Origin: Planctomycetota bacterium
GTDB lineage: Bacteria; Planctomycetota; Phycisphaerae; Phycisphaerales; SM1A02
NCBI GenBank assembly: GCA_022566725.1
Contig: JADFIM010000001.1
Coordinates: 1-63,773 of the forward strand
DNA: 63,773 bases
Reading direction: 5' to 3'
The position numbers and the translations under genes were made by a program. Position 1 is the stretch's first letter; each line of letters begins with the position of its first letter. This document shows positions 1-63,773 of this stretch, one piece after another. The notes under the pieces are model-generated. The model was not told where the DNA came from. It searched no databases and worked only from the letters and a program-made list of their open reading frames with translations.

Positions 1-1377
1 ACCGAAGGATGGACCGCCGTTCGGCTGTTATTGTCCCGCGCGGCAACCGAGCGGCTTCCGGTGGAGCGTCGCCGAGGCGAAATCGAGATGCTCGGATGGC
101 TGGAGCTTCACCTGGACGTTGCCCCGGCGGTCATCGTGGCGGGATTCAACGATGGACGCATTCCCGCCGCGGTGACCGGCGATGCGTTCCTGCCCGACAC
201 TCTTCGGCGGCGATTGGGCCTGACCGACAACACTCGGCGCTATGCCCGTGACGCCTATATCCTCGAAGCGCTTCGCCACAGCCGGAAAGATCTGACGATT
301 GTCATGGGTCGGCATACGGCCCAGGGCGAGCCGCTGGTGCCCAGCCGGCTGCTGCTGGCCTGCGAGAGATCGCAACTTCCCGCCCGCATCGAACTGGTTT
401 GCGATGAGCAGCGGGCAAGAACCTGGCGGCAGCCGGTCGGCGTAGCGTCACCGGACCGAAGCTCGCAGTTCGAGGTGCCGCCACTGCCGCCGGACCTCCA
501 GCCACCGCAGGTGATGCGCGTGACATGGTTCCGCGAATACCTGCAATGTCCGTATCGGTTTGCCCTGCGGCGTCTGGTGGGGCTGCAAAGCAAGACCGAC
601 ACCGCGATGGAGCTGGACCCGTCGCAGTTCGGCATTCTGGCCCATGAAGTGCTGCGGGCATTCGGCGAAGAAGAAGCAATTGTGAACTCCGCCGATGCTC
701 AGGAGATCGAGGCGTTCCTTCTGGATGCGCTCCAGAAGGAAGCTCGCCAGCGATTCGGCGAGCATCCGATGTCGGCGGTGCACGTCCAAATCGCCCGGCT
801 TGCGCATCGCCTTGGATCGTTCGCAAGGTTCCAAGCGAAGCAGCGCGAAGCCGGTTGGATCATCCGACACAGCGAACTGAAGTTCACGGAGGCAAACTTC
901 CTCGATGTTCCGGGGCAGGCCCCCATGCCGATCCGCGGACGGATCGACCGAATTGACCAGCATGAAGGCACCGGCGCGTGGCGCATCATCGACTACAAGA
1001 CGGGCGATCCGGGCGAGTCGCCCTACGAGATACATCACGGCCGAAAGACGCTCCCGAAAGAGGGTGACCCGAAGTGGCAGGACCTGCAACTGCCCCTGTA
1101 CCACTTCCTCGCGGAGCAGCACGGCATGACCGGCGATGTCGAGCTCGCCTACATTGTGCTTCCCAAACAGACCGACGGGGTCACGTTGTTGGCAGCTCAG
1201 TGGGGGCAGGATCATCTGGCCGGCGCGATCGAGATTGCCCGCGAGATCGTTCGCGACATTCGAGCCGGCCGATTCGAGATGAACTTGGAGTACTCCCCGC
1301 GGTTCGACGACTTCGCCCGCATCTGCCAAGCGTTGGTCTTCGCCGAGGGCGACAGCACGGAGGAGGGTGGGTCATGA
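1..1377 (+). CDS. AddB/RexB-like helicase-nuclease subunit, C-terminal PD-(D/E)XK nuclease part (5' end outside window)
   Basis: Frame is open from nt 1 (track ORF 31..1377). Motifs CPYRFALRRLVGL, GRIDRIDQ...WRIIDYKTG and QLPLY fit a RecB-family nuclease domain. Stop overlaps the next start (ATGA at 1374-1377). Confidence 0.75.
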   Translation, partial: TEGWTAVRLLLSRAATERLPVERRRGEIEMLGWLELHLDVAPAVIVAGFNDGRIPAAVTGDAFLPDTLRRRLGLTDNTRRYARDAYILEALRHSRKDLTIVMGRHTAQGEPLVPSRLLLACERSQLPARIELVCDEQRARTWRQPVGVASPDRSSQFEVPPLPPDLQPPQVMRVTWFREYLQCPYRFALRRLVGLQSKTDTAMELDPSQFGILAHEVLRAFGEEEAIVNSADAQEIEAFLLDALQKEARQRFGEHPMSAVHVQIARLAHRLGSFARFQAKQREAGWIIRHSELKFTEANFLDVPGQAPMPIRGRIDRIDQHEGTGAWRIIDYKTGDPGESPYEIHHGRKTLPKEGDPKWQDLQLPLYHFLAEQHGMTGDVELAYIVLPKQTDGVTLLAAQWGQDHLAGAIEIAREIVRDIRAGRFEMNLEYSPRFDDFARICQALVFAEGDSTEEGGS

Positions 1378-4300
1378 CGGCCGATCGTTTCGCCCACCTG
1401 CGGATCCTCGCCTCGGCGGGGTCGGGCAAGACCTACCAACTGACCACCCGGTATCTGCAACTCCTGGCGGCCGGGGCGGATCCGAACTCCATTCTCGCCA
1501 CTACGTTCACCCGGGCGGCCGCCGGGGAGATTCGCGATCGCCTGTTGCGCGATCTGGCGGAAGCGGCGATCGACCCCAACCAGCGACGAGCTCTGGCTCA
1601 ACGACTCGACCAGACGGCCTTGAGCGAGGATGACGTGCTGGAGATCCTAGCGTCGCTAGCCGCGCAACTGCACCGGTTGCAAATCCGCACCCTGGACAGC
1701 TTCTTTGCGACGGTGGTGCGCAGCTTCGCGCTGGAGTTGGGAATTGGCGCCGAGGCCGGCATCGTCGAGCAAGAAGTCGGCCGCCGCTACCGCCGCGAAG
1801 CCGTTCGGCTGATGCTCGACGAGCGACATCCCCAGCGCCTCGTCGATCTGCTGCGCAAGCTCACCCAGGGTACCTCCGACCGCAGCGTCCTGCACGCCAT
1901 CGATCGAACCGTCGAGGGCTTGTATGCGCTGTACCGGGAGGCCGATCAATCGGCATGGGAGCAAATCGAGGCCCCGCCGCGGCTGCGCGAGGATCAAGTC
2001 AACGACGCCATCCACCATCTTGCCGAATGCGCCGTACCCAGCCACAAGAACTTCGCCAAGGGACACGCCAACGACGTGCACAGAGCGTGGGCACGCGAGT
2101 GGGAAGAGTTTGTAGCCAAAGGGTTGGGCTCGAAGATCATCCAGGGACAGCCCAACTATTACGGCTTGGACATCAACTCGCAGCTTGTCGAGGCCTACCA
2201 GCCGCTGCTTCGGCACGCCAAGGCTGTGCTGCTAGGTCGCGTGCGCGACCAGACCATCGCCACACGCAAGCTGCTTGAGCTGTACCACCGTCACTACGAG
2301 CAGGTCAAGCGCCGCGGGAGGGCGATGACCTTTGATGACGTGACCCATGCCATGGCCGGGGCCAACGAACGCGGCAGCCTGGATGAAATCTGCTTCCGTA
2401 TCGACGCCAAACTGCACCACCTGCTGCTGGATGAGTTCCAGGACACGAGCATTCAGCAATGGCGGGCGCTGCAACCGATCGTCGACGAAATCATCTCTCA
2501 CCAGACAACGAAGCGCACGTTCTTCTGCGTGGGCGACGCCAAACAGTCAATCTATGGCTGGCGCGACGCATCGCCTGAGGTCCTCGACGAGATTCCCCGC
2601 CTGTTGCGGGGACCCGATGGTCGTAGCGCCGTTGTGGATCGGCATCTCGCCAAGAGCTACCGCTCCTCGCAGATCATCATCGACGTCGTCAATCGCGTCT
2701 TCACCAGGCTGAGCGACAACCCGGCGCTGAACGACTACCCGGACGCGGCGAACATCTGGGCAAAACAGTTCCGCAAGCACGAGACGGCCAAGGAGCTGCC
2801 GGGCTATGCTCAACTCCTTGTCGCTCCGAGAACTGGCGAAGGCGAGAAGCAGGATCTCGTGCGTCTTCAATGTGCGGCTGATCTGGTGGCGAAGCTTCAC
2901 CGCGCAGCGCCGCTGCGATCCATCGGCGTACTGACGCGGACCAACCCAGGCGTGGCCCGCATGATGTACGAGCTCGGCCCGACGTGCCGAAAGACGCCCG
3001 CCACCGGCCGCGGAGGCCTGCCCCTGACCGATTCGGCCGCGGTGAACACGGTGCTCGATCTGCTGCGTCTCACCGACCACCCGGACGACACGATCTCGGC
3101 GTACAACGTGCGGCACTCGCCCCTTGGCTCGCTGATCGGGTTGACGACCCTGGAGCCGCGGCGCTGTCACACGGTGGCCCGCGAGGTGCGCCGGGACCTG
3201 CTGAGGGACGGGTACGCGTTGACCATCGCACGATGGGTCGGCCGCCTCGCGCCGGCGTGCGACCAACGCCAACTGCGGCGCCTCCTGGAGCTGGTGGAGT
3301 TGGCCGGCCTGTATGACGCCGACAGCACACAGCGCGCCGACGACTTTGTCGCCTGCGTTGAAATGCGGCAGATGCCCGATGCCGCACCCTCCACGATCGA
3401 GGTGATGACGATCCACCAGGCCAAGGGTCTGGAGTTTGACATCGTCGTCCTGCCTCAGCTGGACGGCCGACAAGGTCAACTTACCGGCAACAAGCCGCCC
3501 CCCGTGGTGTTCGAGCGGGAGAGTCCGACCGGGCACATCACGCGGATCTGCCGCTATATGAAGCACGAAACGCTGGCCCTAGCCCCGCAACTGCAACCGA
3601 TGTTCACCTCTCACATTCAGCGCACGGTGCGCGAAAGCTTGTCGCTGCTCTACGTGGCGATGACCCGCGCCCGCCACGCCTTGCACCTCGTGATCGATCC
3701 CCCGCGCGCCAATGAGAGGTCGATCCCAAGGACACTCGCCGGTGTCCTGCGCAGCGCCTTGGCCGATGGTCCGCTTGAGCCGGGGCAATGTGCCTACGCC
3801 CACGGTGACCCGAACTGGCTCGGCGTTGCCCAACGTCCTGAAGCGCCCATTGAACCAGAACCGACCGACAAGATCACCATTGGCCTCGCGCCGTCAACGG
3901 GTCCGGTTGTGCATGCAGCGGTCAGCCCTTCCAAGCTTGCCCAGCGGGACCTGGCTTCGGCACTGAGCTTCCCGGACGACGAGGCACTTCAGCGGGGTGC
4001 GGTCATCCACGACATGTTCCAACAGGTCGAGTGGCTTGAGGATTGGCAGCCAGATCAGGACTCGCTGCAAATGGTCGCCAGGCGAGTGGCCGCGCGGCGC
4101 GGCGAGGACTGGGCACAACGGCAGGTCGAGTCGTTCCTGAGGATGGTCGAACGCCCGGCAGTACACGCGGCCCTCTCGTACGGCGATCGTGAACCCTCGA
4201 CCCTTCGACTGTGGCGCGAGCATCCGTACGCCCGGCTTGTTGATGGCGCGGTACAGCGCGGAGCGATCGACCGCTTGGAAGCCCGGTACGACAAGGGGAA

Positions 4301-4496
4301 GCTGCGAGCGGCTTCGATCATCGATTTCAAGATCGACGACATCGATCCGAGCGAGGCGCCAGCCAGAGCCGAGCGGTATCGACCGCAGCTTGAGGCGTAT
4401 CGAGACGCCGCGGCCGAGATGCTTCGGACGGACCCCGCCGCGGTGAAAATGATCGTGCTATTCGTCACCGCGGGCGAAGCAGTTGTCCTGCCATAA
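1374..4496 (+). CDS. UvrD/Rep-family ATP-dependent helicase with C-terminal RecB-type nuclease (AddA-like)
   Basis: Walker A ASAGSGKTY, DEFQDTS, VGDAKQSIYGWR, TIHQAKGLEFD and VAMTRAR helicase motifs; C-terminal IIDFK...QLEAYR nuclease motif. Start set at ATG 1374 (in frame with track ORF 1074..4496), because the upstream part lies inside the previous gene. Confidence 0.85.
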   Translation: MTADRFAHLRILASAGSGKTYQLTTRYLQLLAAGADPNSILATTFTRAAAGEIRDRLLRDLAEAAIDPNQRRALAQRLDQTALSEDDVLEILASLAAQLHRLQIRTLDSFFATVVRSFALELGIGAEAGIVEQEVGRRYRREAVRLMLDERHPQRLVDLLRKLTQGTSDRSVLHAIDRTVEGLYALYREADQSAWEQIEAPPRLREDQVNDAIHHLAECAVPSHKNFAKGHANDVHRAWAREWEEFVAKGLGSKIIQGQPNYYGLDINSQLVEAYQPLLRHAKAVLLGRVRDQTIATRKLLELYHRHYEQVKRRGRAMTFDDVTHAMAGANERGSLDEICFRIDAKLHHLLLDEFQDTSIQQWRALQPIVDEIISHQTTKRTFFCVGDAKQSIYGWRDASPEVLDEIPRLLRGPDGRSAVVDRHLAKSYRSSQIIIDVVNRVFTRLSDNPALNDYPDAANIWAKQFRKHETAKELPGYAQLLVAPRTGEGEKQDLVRLQCAADLVAKLHRAAPLRSIGVLTRTNPGVARMMYELGPTCRKTPATGRGGLPLTDSAAVNTVLDLLRLTDHPDDTISAYNVRHSPLGSLIGLTTLEPRRCHTVAREVRRDLLRDGYALTIARWVGRLAPACDQRQLRRLLELVELAGLYDADSTQRADDFVACVEMRQMPDAAPSTIEVMTIHQAKGLEFDIVVLPQLDGRQGQLTGNKPPPVVFERESPTGHITRICRYMKHETLALAPQLQPMFTSHIQRTVRESLSLLYVAMTRARHALHLVIDPPRANERSIPRTLAGVLRSALADGPLEPGQCAYAHGDPNWLGVAQRPEAPIEPEPTDKITIGLAPSTGPVVHAAVSPSKLAQRDLASALSFPDDEALQRGAVIHDMFQQVEWLEDWQPDQDSLQMVARRVAARRGEDWAQRQVESFLRMVERPAVHAALSYGDREPSTLRLWREHPYARLVDGAVQRGAIDRLEARYDKGKLRAASIIDFKIDDIDPSEAPARAERYRPQLEAYRDAAAEMLRTDPAAVKMIVLFVTAGEAVVLP

Positions 4497-7915: not shown

Positions 7916-8156
7916 TGTTTACCCGCGGCCGCCAAGCCGCGCATCAGGCGTCGAGCGAAGAAGTTGTAAAGCCGCGACCATTGGTCGCGGTGCTTTGCCA
8001 CACGCCGCACGCGAGCGGTCTTAGCGAGCCCCACAGCGCCGCCGTTTAGCCGCCGGTCGCAGACCGGCGCGCTGCTGTGTCAAGCGTTTAGCCGCCGGCC
8101 TTGGCCCGCCGGGTCGCTCGGGTCGAACGCCCCGCGGGTTTCCACCCGCGGCTAAC
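7916..8156. repeat. cluster of five REP-like units (TGTTTAGCC/TGTAAAGCC + GC-rich hairpin) filling a convergent intergenic region
   Basis: Units at 7916-7942, 7965-7998, 8044-8069 and 8086-8113, plus an inverted unit at 8130-8156. Each has a TTTA/TAAA-GCC head and a 6-8 bp GC stem, e.g. GCCGGTC-GCA-GACCGGC and CCGCGGGT-TTCC-ACCCGCGG. Confidence 0.7.
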
Positions 8157-20239: not shown

Positions 20240-20611
20240 GAGAGGTCAGGCTTGAGGCTCCAAGGCACGAAGGCTTGAGGCGTGGCGTTGGGCGGCGCCT
20301 CTGGGCCGATTCATCGGCATGCTATCCGCCGAACTTGGGGGCGGCTCGGCGATGTGGAGGTGGGGCGACTGCCGACGAGCCGCCGGCGAGCTGCGGCCCG
20401 TGATGCCACGATGCCCCTTGTGCAAAAAACCCCGCCGCCAGAGTCTGGCACGCCCAGCCAACCCTGCCCGTGCGACGGGGACGATTCCCAGCACAGCCCG
20501 CACATGCTGCGGTTTGGGATGCTGTTCGCAGATGTTGGACAGATGGTTCCGCCCGGCGATGGGCGAGGCGACGGAAGCGCTGCCAGCGGCCTCGGAGTGT
20601 CGTGTGGCCAT

Positions 20612-20693
20612 GCGGGCGACAGGATTCGAACCTGCACGGGTTGCCCCACGGGAACCTAAATCCCGCGCGTCTGCCAGTTCCGCCACGCCCGCG
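20612..20693 (-). tRNA. tRNA-Leu, anticodon UAG
   Basis: Hand fold: acceptor GCGGGCG/CGCCCGC plus discriminator A; anticodon arm CGGGA-TTTAGGT-TCCCG; long variable arm; T arm GCAGG-TTCGAAT-CCTGT. No encoded CCA. Confidence 0.9.
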
Positions 20694-20759
20694 GTGAAAA
20701 CCAGTAAGATTATCCCCGAGCCATGGCCTGCGGACAACAGATCTGCCGCGGACCTGCCG

Positions 20760-21617
20760 ATGGGAGCAATATCGATGAGTTTCAGTCAAAACGCAGCCAC
20801 CAACATCGTTCCACTGCTGGGCCGCTTGGTATTGGCCGCAGCGTTCATCCCGGCCGGGTTCCACAAGGTTTGGGAAGATAGTACGTTCACCGGCGAGGCG
20901 GCGCAAACGCTCCTCGACCTTGGATTCGGTCAGCTCATTGCAGCCGACGAGCAGGTGAGGTCCGCCGGCCGAATCGTCCTTGCCTCATATCAAGACGTGG
21001 AGACCGGACGCCTTGGTAGCCAAACGCAACCGGCCACAACGCAAGATGAGGAAGCGGCAGCAGACGAGCCGACCCAGCCGCAGGCCGATGCAACCGGCGA
21101 GGCAGCGCTCGAAGAGGAGGTCCCGGTCGAAGACCTGCAACCGGCTGAAGAGCCGGACGCCCGACCGCAACCGTCCAGCCCCCCTGAAGTCGAACCTGAA
21201 GTCGAACAGGCTCCCGGCATACAAGTCACAGCCAAGCGCCTCCACCATATCACGGTGATGCTCGTGGACGGTGGCCTGGACTGGAACCCGGGGCTGATGG
21301 CCTGGGCGGGCGCGCTGACGGAGCTGTTCGGCGGCGCGTTGATCTTGATCGGTCTGCTCAGCCGGCTCTGGGGTCTCGGTCTGGCCGTCGTGATGGGATG
21401 CGCGTTCTATCTCACGACGTGGGTCGCGATCGGCGAGCACGGCTGGTTCTCGCTGCCGGTTTCACAGTTCAACACCATGTTCACCCAACTGGGCTTGTTC
21501 GTGCTGGCCTTTGGCGTGCTCCTGACCGGGCCCGGAGCGGTGAGCTTCGATCGGGCGCTCTTCCGCCGGGCCAAACCCGAAACCGAAGACGAGCATCATT
21601 TCGTCGATCTGACCTGA
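20760..21617 (+). CDS. DoxX-family membrane protein with a long acidic/Pro-rich insertion
   Basis: IVPLLGRLVLAAAFIPAGFHKV and a C-terminal DoxX-like TM bundle. Start moved to 20760 (or 20775), because the track ORF start at 20319 runs across the tRNA. Confidence 0.65.
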   Translation: MGAISMSFSQNAATNIVPLLGRLVLAAAFIPAGFHKVWEDSTFTGEAAQTLLDLGFGQLIAADEQVRSAGRIVLASYQDVETGRLGSQTQPATTQDEEAAADEPTQPQADATGEAALEEEVPVEDLQPAEEPDARPQPSSPPEVEPEVEQAPGIQVTAKRLHHITVMLVDGGLDWNPGLMAWAGALTELFGGALILIGLLSRLWGLGLAVVMGCAFYLTTWVAIGEHGWFSLPVSQFNTMFTQLGLFVLAFGVLLTGPGAVSFDRALFRRAKPETEDEHHFVDLT

Positions 21618-61983: not shown

Positions 61984-62487
61984 ATGCCGCGCTACAGGCT
62001 CACCGTCGCCTACGACGGAACCAACTTTCACGGCTGGCAGAAGCAGTGCGCCTCAGATGGGCCGGCGCAGGAGTCGCTGCGCACCGTGCAAGGCGTGCTT
62101 GAACAGGCCATCGTAGACGTGGTGCGCGAGCGGGTCAGCGTCCAGGGATCTTCGCGAACCGATGCGGGTGTCCACGCCGTAGGACAGGTCGCCGCCTTCA
62201 GCTGTCAGATGGAAATCGCGCCCGATCGCCTCGCCCCCGCCATCAACTCCCGCCTGCCTGACGACGCGCAGGTACGTAGTGCCAGCATCATTCACGAAGG
62301 CTTCAGCCCCATCAGCGACGCGATTTCGAAAGGTTACCGTTACCGCATCGCCCACGGTCGCAAGGGTCCGCCGCCAGCGGGCCTGCCGCCGCTGTTCAGC
62401 CGGCACACGACCTTCTGGACCCCCTACCGTCTCGATCCGCTTCGAATGAACGAAGCCGCGCGTCGTCTGGTCGGCGAGCACGATTTC
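61984..62487 (+). pseudogene. truA: tRNA pseudouridine(38-40) synthase TruA, 5' portion only (about 168 codons)
   Basis: MPRYRLTVAYDGTNFHGWQKQ, catalytic SSRTDAGVHA, and RYRI...LVGEHDF. The expected continuation (SF...MVR motifs) is absent in all frames. Not in the ORF track because the frame has no stop before the window end. Confidence 0.8.
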
Positions 62488-63773
62488 AATGCGACGGATG
62501 CCGAAGCAGGCTGGGCCGAGTTCTGCACGGCGAACTTCGAGAGCATAGGGGCACACGATTACGAAAATACCGTTCCATACTGGAACAGTGTTTCATCGAC
62601 CGGCATCCTCAGCCATGTCTGCATTGATCGCTATCATGGGGCGGCGGCTCACGAGAAGCTCTTCTTCGAAGAGTTCGTCCCAGAAGAGGTCAGTTTTAAC
62701 GTGGAGATTGCTGCTACACGGCTCACCAAAGAAGAAATCGCCCTGGTGTTGGCGATTCTGGAACAGGCGACATCGGACCCGACGCACCCCTGTCAATTCG
62801 GCGCCAACGGCGCCAATGGCTGGGGACGGATGGCGTGGGAACTCAATGAGGTAAAGCTACTTGAGGGTAGGCCCGTTCAGTTGTCTAGCGGTCAGGCCGG
62901 ATTTGACTGCTGCAGTCAAGTAGTCGAAATCGCTTCAGCATCGCTTGACGAGCTAATCGTTCCTGCTCACATTTTGGCAGACTTGAAGCTCGAGTGCTGT
63001 GGGCCGTTCCTGGTAAACGATACTTCGCACACGAAAGAAAAGGACGCAGAAGATTCAGACGCGCCCAATTTTATCCCGTTGTGCCGGGCAGCTGGCACTG
63101 TGTGGTTGGCCGCTTCGTCGTTCCGAGGCGCCTTGCGCGAGCGGGCCGAGTTTCTGCTCCGATCGCTGGATCCCCAGGCGACCGGCGATCCCAACAGGAG
63201 TCTGGGAGACGGCCCGATCGAGCGAATCTTCGGCAAGACCTCTCACGCGGCGCGACTCACGATTGCCGAACCGACGGAACTGGGCAGATGTGAAACTCCG
63301 AAACAGGACTTCGTCGCGATCGATCGTTTCACCGGCGGCGCGGCAGATGGGGCGAAATTCGCTGCCACTTACGCCGACCGCCCCCAGTTCCAGACGAAGC
63401 TGAGACTCGACTTGGACGGACTAGAACCGGAAGATACCGCTCTGCTGGGCTTGGCTCTGCGTGATGTCTGCCAGGGCAAGGTCCCCCTGGGTTGGGGCGG
63501 ATCCAAAGGCTACGGCGAAGTAAGCGGTAGCCTCACGAACTTGAGTTCTAAAGACGTTCCACAAGATTGGGAGGTTCCCGAATCCATGGCCACGGATACT
63601 CTGGATCATGCAGGGAAGAACTGGCTGTCTAACCGACTGAGGCTGCTCTTCGACGAGCAGAATGCACTTAATATTGACAGACTAGGGAACGACGTTTCCC
63701 AGGTGATGATCCAAGAAGGAACTCTGTCAGTTACTAAAACAAAGAAAGGCCTTGACTACAGCCTCTCCTACGT
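62488..63773 (+). CDS. multi-RAMP (tandem Cas7-like) protein fragment, type III CRISPR-Cas-like; 5' boundary undefined, 3' end outside window
   Basis: Same open frame as truA. Module 1: IDRYHG...KLFFEEFVPEEVSFNVEI (62623-) and G-rich loop FGANGANGWGR (62797-62829). Module 2: LKLECCGPFLV..., ASSFRGALR (63112-63138), IFGKTSHAARLTIAEP, AIDRFTGGAADGAKF (63316-63360) and G-rich loop LGWGGSKGYGEV (63487-63522). Hand-counted GC of 43-50% per 60 nt. Confidence 0.65.

Follow-up and report, generated by a model that had tools for sequence, protein, structure and literature searches.

The final 1.3 kb of a contig from a Planctomycetota bacterium was found to carry a real but partial copy of a type III-D backbone gene of a known kind, attached abruptly and in frame to the truncated 5' part of a housekeeping gene, truA. 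To judge from sequence comparison, bases 62489–63773 are a genuine fragment of a Cas7-2x-type gene from a CorA/SAM-AMP-type III-D operon, and the join itself is probably a chimeric contig end, that is, an artefact of sequencing or assembly. Whichever origin applies, both genes are broken and the join offers no support for function, and nothing presented here demonstrates a working or new CRISPR effector at the contig end. The stretch of DNA analysed (63,773 nucleotides, referred to as the window) is most probably the entire contig, which would thus end at 63773.

An open reading frame composed of two unrelated genes

An ATG at position 61984 of the forward strand opens a frame that was read without a stop through base 63773 (596 codons), in agreement with what the first-pass annotation of this DNA had stated; the frame is missing from the ORF list solely because it runs past the end of the window. 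Its product is on record once in the protein collection (P0001, 597 aa, from a single contig with the same length as the window, 63,773). Pfam and NCBIfam profiles identified codons 1–168 as the N-terminal part of the tRNA pseudouridine synthase TruA, on which the first-pass annotation was silent, and the last 428 codons (from 62488) hold RAMP/Cas7 domains, so that the "hidden ORF" combines parts of two genes unrelated to each other.

The truA part (61984..62488, + strand) represents the 5' two-thirds of the gene, including the catalytic-Asp motif RTDAGVHA, and was assigned by PF01416 (codons 1–168, 4.5e-14), by TIGR00071 and by its identity to the sister genomes (95–98% to TruA of sister Planctomycetota over codons 1–168). 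The TIGR00071 match covers positions 5–149 of 228 and scores 100.2 bits against a cut-off of 142.85, below what a full-length TruA requires. Native TruA in the sister genomes has 268–270 aa, whereas the window's truA is cut at codon 168, after HDF; the sister genes run 100–102 residues past the breakpoint, so that about 100 C-terminal TruA residues are absent from the window. The C-terminal 100 or so residues of TruA form half of the active-site cleft. All TruA relatives of the clade continue with HDF-TSFTRKNHGRES past the breakpoint position, and 17 of the 17 listed members of the two closest TruA clusters are full length with native sequence beyond it. An intact truA of the same strain was sought in the closest TruA clusters and none was found, the nearest members differing at 3 of 168 residues. 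The homologue search, which covered 5.8 billion proteins, returned 106 RAMP relatives besides the window's own product, none of which carries the TruA domain PF01416 (0/106); conversely, the 48 TruA relatives have 224–278 aa each and none carries the RAMP domain PF03787 (0/48).

The RAMP part corresponds to the end of Cas7.2 and to Cas7.3

The first-pass annotation had reported RAMP motifs from about 62600 onwards, within a feature starting at 62488, and proposed profile-HMM searches and structure prediction, both of which gave significant RAMP/Cas7 matches. Among the profiles, PF03787 (RAMPs) matched the tail in two stretches (7.9e-17), the better one at ORF residues 372–513, and PADLOC Cas7_IIId (PDLC02115) matched at 6.8e-31. 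The best solved relative is 9wxh_D, the Cas7x3 subunit of type III-D2 (E = 9.7e-33), with tail residues 8–356 (349 residues) aligned to chain positions 108–469, a span that comprises the end of Cas7.2 plus Cas7.3; it is followed by 8s9t_D, the Cas7-2x subunit of the Synechocystis III-Dv system (5.6e-10), and then by Cas7-11 (~1e-7). Homology to Cas7.2–Cas7.3 of characterised III-D subunits is therefore found with 9wxh_D, 8s9t_D and the PADLOC model alike. An AF2 model of the tail, computed from a 50-sequence alignment, reached a pLDDT of 82.7 and a pTM of 0.79, and its top Foldseek matches were the Cas7-2x chains 8s9x_D, 8s9t_D and 8s9u_D (E 2.7e-16 to 5.3e-15, TMq 0.59–0.64), with gRAMP/Cas7-11 ranking below these in a fold library that predates 9wxh. 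Only the second Cas7 domain of the model is complete, the first being without about 130 N-terminal residues; the alignment A1 agrees, and the earlier description of a partial module followed by a complete one thus holds.

Of the first Cas7 domain (Cas7.2 equivalent; 62494..62847, + strand), delimited by A1, the 9wxh_D alignment and the AF2 model, only the C-terminal half is present (tail residues ~3–120). This half keeps AEAGWAEF, the thumb hairpin, IDRYHG, LFFEEFVPE, a helix and the G-rich loop FGANGANGWGR, and was modelled as strands (E9–77) and a helix (81–96) with pLDDT 83–94. Missing in A1 are the beta-1 strand, the GxG loop, the KGxLR helix and the FG motif (~130 aa): full-length homologues open with NRWxIxGTLTT..PLHxGxG..IPGxxxKGxLR..FG, in place of which the window has TruA codons 1–168, and family homology starts at AEAGWAEF (ORF residue ~172). 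The window accordingly holds no complete gene with its own Cas7 N-terminus. The inter-domain linker (62848..62967, + strand) is poorly conserved, with gappy, variable A1 columns and lower pLDDT (66–87), and is the counterpart of the L2 linker of Cas7x3, which is disordered (PMC13294483). It leads into the complete second Cas7 domain (Cas7.3 equivalent; 62968..63552, + strand; tail residues ~160–355), which is supported by Pfam RAMPs, 9wxh_D, AF2 (pLDDT about 87–97) and Foldseek and displays the motifs LKLECCGPFLVND, SSFRGALR, RIFGK, FVAIDRFTGGAADGAKF and LGWGGSKGYGEV. In the window and its nearest relatives the zinc-finger segment of this domain has no Cys (0) and a shorter loop; about half of the family members do have the four-Cys zinc finger of Cas7.3.

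The remaining C-terminal extension (63553..63773, + strand) has no stop and is open at the contig end. Over 55 aa it is 42% identical to the C-terminal extension of the closest homologue, P0002, indicating that the residues after the second module, which had at first matched nothing recognisable, are in part clade-typical: this applies to the first ~45 of them, and the last ~35 are of low confidence (pLDDT <50 from tail residue 395). As P0002 ends 83 residues past the aligned stretch, the stop codon of the native ORF would probably lie a few dozen codons past the last base of the contig. The tail as a whole shows no decay, with no stop or frameshift in its 428 codons and with 21 of 21 family-invariant A1 columns retained.

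The junction and its surroundings

Scanning species-representative genomes yielded three sister loci from Planctomycetota MAGs (L060, L061 and L062), the DNA of which shows 93–95% identity to the window between ~56,000 and precisely 62,488 and matches no base beyond, while their own sequence goes on for 6 kb past the breakpoint position. Compared base by base, the window tracks the sisters through ...GAGCACGATTTCA and then diverges wholly, the sisters continuing with their truA. The first-pass annotation let its feature begin at 62488, the very base at which the match to the sister genomes ends. Homology to RAMP genes resumes 2–4 codons after the break (tblastn to L001, L025 and L005). Taken together, sister identity up to 62488 and RAMP homology 2–4 codons later place the breakpoint, which leads from truA codon 168 into the interior of a Cas7-2x-type gene, at 62488..62489 (+ strand), and make the join free of filler, with at most 1 nt (A) shared between the two sides. 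With so short an overlap, a k-mer misjoin by a de Bruijn assembler is ruled out; either the junction is real or one or more chimeric reads physically existed. The reading frame is preserved across the join, a 1-in-3 event by chance, and 1,285 nt separate the join from the contig end, which puts it in the last 2% of the sequence.

A compositional switch supports the same breakpoint. At the break, GC drops from 0.65 to 0.57, and GC3 drops from 0.77 to 0.64, with the switch within bin 62434–62523. No other 1.28-kb piece of the contig deviates as much as the tail (tetranucleotide z = 4.55, GC z = -3.45): of 307 body windows, none is as extreme. Measured against 89 in-frame 428-codon windows of long body ORFs, the GC3 of the tail is 0.636 compared to 0.765±0.043 (minimum 0.687, n = 89), a z of about -3; in an unfiltered per-ORF list, which is contaminated by antisense shadow ORFs, its z is only -1.4. 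Among the relatives, the GC of the Cas7-2x-type gene matches that of the host contig, and the tail, given its composition switch, therefore resembles DNA of a genome with ~55–57% GC.

The surroundings of the junction lack the context of a III-D operon. In the last ~10–12 kb upstream, the genes examined are housekeeping genes (PGM, NUDIX, DapA, PdxJ, PhoU, UDPGP, glycerate kinase, DedA/VTT, ferritin-like and an AAA protein); the window genes examined include no cas gene, and TRF, Rfam and a direct-repeat search revealed no CRISPR array anywhere in the window. The contig begins with AddAB-like genes. In the sister loci, no RAMP or cas gene is located within 6 kb downstream of truA, and the intergenic stretch just 3' of truA varies among the sister MAGs. 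A search for mobile-element or recombination signatures at the junction gave only chance-level repeats of 10–17 nt, no Rfam family and no tRNA nearby. In JGI metagenomes, a degenerate pattern for GWAEFCTA retrieved 54 loci, of which L025 alone was a RAMP relative (53% aa identity), and no second copy of the tail, from the same strain or otherwise, was present in the protein collection or in this pattern search.

Origin of the join

The deviant composition, the position at the contig end, the undecayed tail, the uniqueness of the fusion and the lack of cas genes or an array nearby together favour a chimeric contig end. About 1.3 kb from a lower-GC member of the community would then have been appended to the contig during sequencing or assembly, the 596-codon "ORF" would owe its existence to a join that happened, with a chance of 1 in 3, to be in frame, and the Planctomycetota locus would encode no CRISPR effector. 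A tail with all invariant columns in place and no stop or frameshift fits an intact gene from elsewhere, and the unusual context noticed at first is the splice to truA, probably an assembly artefact.

A real junction is the main competitor, possible yet the less probable of the two. Illegitimate recombination may have attached a foreign III-D piece to truA, or a deletion may have extended from truA into an adjacent, recently acquired cas island, either of which would leave two fresh, functionless pseudogenes. Filler-free joins with at most 1 nt of overlap are typical of illegitimate recombination and hard to obtain by k-mer misassembly; moreover, horizontal acquisition and deviant composition are common among CRISPR-Cas loci, cas islands often being low-GC acquisitions, so that a real insertion of recent date would likewise be compatible with the shift in composition. 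The variable region 3' of truA in the sister MAGs is in line with this, and a strain-variable island would also account for the contig break 1.3 kb further on. However, a real junction needs the loss of truA, a gene that is intact in 48 of 48 relatives and in all 17 listed clade members, and it would have to have left a fragment without any decay at the extreme end of a contig, in surroundings free of further cas remnants, arrays and mobile-element ends and in a lineage whose sisters have no cas genes in the 6 kb downstream.

Homologous operons and likeness to known type III systems

The 106 RAMP relatives are mostly two-Cas7 subunits of ~500–560 aa, and none is gRAMP-sized. Three of their operons were examined (L001, L002 and L004) and have the gene order CorA/NrN, Cas10, Cas7-5, Cas7-2x-type gene and separate Cas7.4/INS gene; in each, the Cas7-2x-type gene ends with a stop and is followed by the separate Cas7.4 gene (TIGR03986), with Cas10 upstream. 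The III-D operon context that the window lacks (Cas10 together with Cas5-containing and Cas7-insertion subunits) is thus present at these loci. L001 and L004 are the two closest loci (56–57% identity to the tail) and have an L002-like layout with an NrN-CorA fusion, and the homologue in L002 shares 36% aa identity with the tail (tblastn). L002 encodes, in order, a CorA-like protein (569 aa; PADLOC, 3.2e-81), Cas10 (529 aa; 9wxh_B, 4.4e-70), Cas7-5 (618 aa; 9wxh_C, 2.2e-105), the Cas7-2x-type member of the window's family (555 aa), Cas7.4/INS (496 aa; TIGR03986, 5e-68, above cut-off; 9wxh_D 869–1220, 1.5e-66) and a CorA-associated DHH (NrN) hydrolase (266 aa; 2.6e-71), with Cas2, a reverse transcriptase and Cas1 further downstream. 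Csx19 was not detected in the homologous operons.

[quoted passage not shown] The Cas7x3 of this system (9wxh_D, from Gammaproteobacteria bacterium HyVt-522; PMC13294483) shares GPFLVND, SFRGAxR, FVAIDRFxGG and GxxKGYG with the tail, the other 9wxh subunits match neighbours in the homologous operons (Cas10, Cas7-5), and CorA is common to both. In contrast to Cas7x3, which is one 1,235-aa protein with three Cas7 domains (Cas7.2-7.3-7.4), the window's family is split into Cas7.2–7.3 (~520–555 aa) and Cas7.4/INS, and the window's clade has no Cys (0) where Cas7.3 of III-D2 has a zinc finger (C338/C344/C351/C354); the family thus differs from a III-D2 Cas7x3 of ~1,200 aa in both respects, and the window copy is in addition 5'-truncated. 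A toxin-antitoxin module has been described for III-D2; the homologous loci instead have a DHH/NrN hydrolase, which is fused to CorA in L001 and L004. In the III-Dv system of Synechocystis sp. PCC 6803 (8s9t/8s9u/8s9x, chain D), Cas7-2x is likewise a stand-alone two-Cas7 protein of ~520 aa and is followed by a separate Cas7-insertion subunit (TIGR03986), as in the window's family. It is the best structural match of the AF2 model, yet identity is only ~19%, and III-Dv has a Cas7-Cas5-Cas11 fusion where the homologous operons have a III-D2-like Cas7-5, a small Cas10 and accessory CorA/NrN.

These comparisons suggest that the window's family provides the Cas7.2–7.3 backbone of a III-D system in which, as in III-Dv, two separate genes encode what Cas7x3 combines in one protein. 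By homology to 9wxh, in an intact system the Cas7-2x subunit, together with Cas7-5, the separate Cas7.4/INS and a small Cas10, would wrap the crRNA; the subunit would hold the target RNA, and Cas10 would make a SAM-AMP-type signal for CorA. The possibility of an undescribed variant, raised in the first-pass annotation, does not stand, as the components of the homologous operons all map onto III-D2 9wxh and the PADLOC III-D models. The literature searched contains no explicit description of the split Cas7-2x plus CorA/NrN layout; we make no claim of novelty for it, since existing models cover every component.

It is very improbable that the frame opens a large effector of several RAMP modules fused in a single protein, whether gRAMP-like (III-E) or undescribed, that runs past the contig end. 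The ORF is still open 73 codons past the second Cas7 domain, there are weak partial matches to III-E and III-I gRAMP models, and since III-D2 fuses the equivalent domains to Cas7.4 in its 1,235-aa Cas7x3, a native gene with three Cas7 domains is conceivable. The Cas7 domains of III-E gRAMP/Cas7-11 are indeed homologous, with weak local matches to the Cas7.2–7.3 region (~1e-7 by sequence, ~1e-14 by fold). However, the NCBIfam gRAMP models give only a local match of 38–40 bits against cut-offs of 700–800 (NF041225: 700), and III-E gRAMPs are single-protein effectors of 1,300–1,800 aa, with four Cas7 domains plus Cas11 and without Cas10, whereas most members of the window's family have 500–560 aa and the loci examined contain Cas10. 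Membership in III-E or III-I gRAMPs was rejected on score, size and Cas10 context. Furthermore, the Cas7-2x-type gene has its stop and its separate Cas7.4 in L001, L002 and L004, the extension aligns with that of P0002, which soon ends, and the N-terminus is truA and no RAMP start. Of the initial proposal of a fused type III effector, the tandem Cas7 architecture and the likeness to III-D Cas7 fusions are therefore retained and the III-E assignment is not; as for an effector running off the window, the gene is without its first ~130 codons and is spliced to a truncated truA at 62488|62489.

A functional TruA-Cas7 fusion, in which a TruA module tethered to a crRNA-binding Cas7 would have a role such as RNA-guided pseudouridylation or some new form of regulation, is hardly credible: the in-frame join keeps RTDAGVHA and an intact Cas7.3 domain, but it is in frame by chance in one case of three, both partners are cut mid-domain (TruA lacks its ~100 C-terminal residues, and Cas7.2 its beta-1, GxG loop and KGxLR helix), the 106 RAMP and 48 TruA relatives hold no second example, the window has neither Cas partners nor an array, and composition switches abruptly at the join. 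The chance that TruA(1–168)-Cas7 is a real, expressed protein that modifies RNA under the guidance of RNA, or that the join at the least reflects the true capture of a foreign cas fragment by a Planctomycetota housekeeping gene, appears similarly slight.

Significance

The case calls for caution, in that a long frame at a contig edge with textbook RAMP motifs resembled a new fused effector and is a truncated known subunit attached to truA. The public 597-aa record, in which TruA and RAMP domains occur together, probably stems from an artefact and is unfit as a seed for family models; intact loci such as L002 suit the study of the family better than the window copy. The family itself is of modest evolutionary interest, as it combines Cas10, Cas7-5 and CorA/NrN of the III-D2 type with the Cas7-2x/Cas7-insertion split of the III-Dv type, and part of it is without the Cas7.3 zinc finger. 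[quoted passage not shown]

Features of the contig body and of the sister genomes

The 5' end of the contig cuts into a gene for an AddB-like PD-(D/E)XK nuclease, which is followed by an AddA/UvrD-type helicase-nuclease gene of about 1,140 codons (1-4496). An intergenic gap contains, at 8043-8118, a pair of imperfect direct repeats of 34 nt that are placed 42 nt apart and share 74% identity; these repeats are rich in GC and could form hairpins. A single tRNA-Leu (anticodon TAG), on the reverse strand at 20611-20692, was the sole RNA gene detected in the window. As this gene sits within a long, mechanically called ORF on the forward strand (20256-21617), the ORF is probably spurious at this site. 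Within the contig body, GC content was lowest in a patch at 45200-47900 (about 0.58). This patch showed native GC3 values (0.75-0.80) together with low GC1 values (0.55-0.60), and its low GC content is therefore likely to stem from amino-acid composition rather than from foreign origin.

The three sister Planctomycetota MAG loci (L060, L061 and L062) were collinear 3' of truA, apart from an intergenic stretch directly after the truA stop codon (about 285-970 nt downstream of the position equivalent to 62488 in the window), where a few hundred nt lacked homology. This stretch is a locally variable region; L060 displayed additional divergence farther downstream.

The Cas7 fragment and homologous type III-D operons

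In the family alignment (A2), the segment of Cas7.3, the second Cas7 domain of the fragment, that lies between SSFRGALR and FG corresponds to window positions 63136-63237. In this segment, about half of the 50 aligned family members have the four-Cys zinc finger that has been reported for Cas7.3 of III-D2; it was missing, and the loop was shorter, in the window as well as in P0002, P0003, P0005 and P0006, the relatives closest to it.

The operons closest to the fragment were those on L001 and L004, two strain-variant contigs of one sample (ENA ERZ25039522, contig_25070 and contig_25067, respectively). Several of their cas genes (cas7-5, the cas7-2x N-terminus, cas7.4 and corA) were broken into adjoining fragments, which suggests either long-read assembly indel errors or real decay. 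In the third locus with a homologous operon, L002, the III-D2-like operon was followed, at L002:14346-18729, by a sigma-70-like gene and an adaptation module in which Cas2, a reverse transcriptase (RVT_1) and Cas1 were each encoded by their own gene; an ISKra4-family transposase was present upstream.

The operons of L002 (4748-13965), L001 and L004 all contained Cas10, Cas7-5 and CorA of the type published for III-D2, as well as a CorA-associated DHH/NrN hydrolase, which formed one fused gene with CorA in L001 and L004. Cas7-2x and Cas7.4/INS (TIGR03986) were encoded by separate genes in all three, a split resembling that of published III-Dv systems. No explicit description of this layout was found in the searchable literature; it is intermediate between published III-Dv and III-D2.
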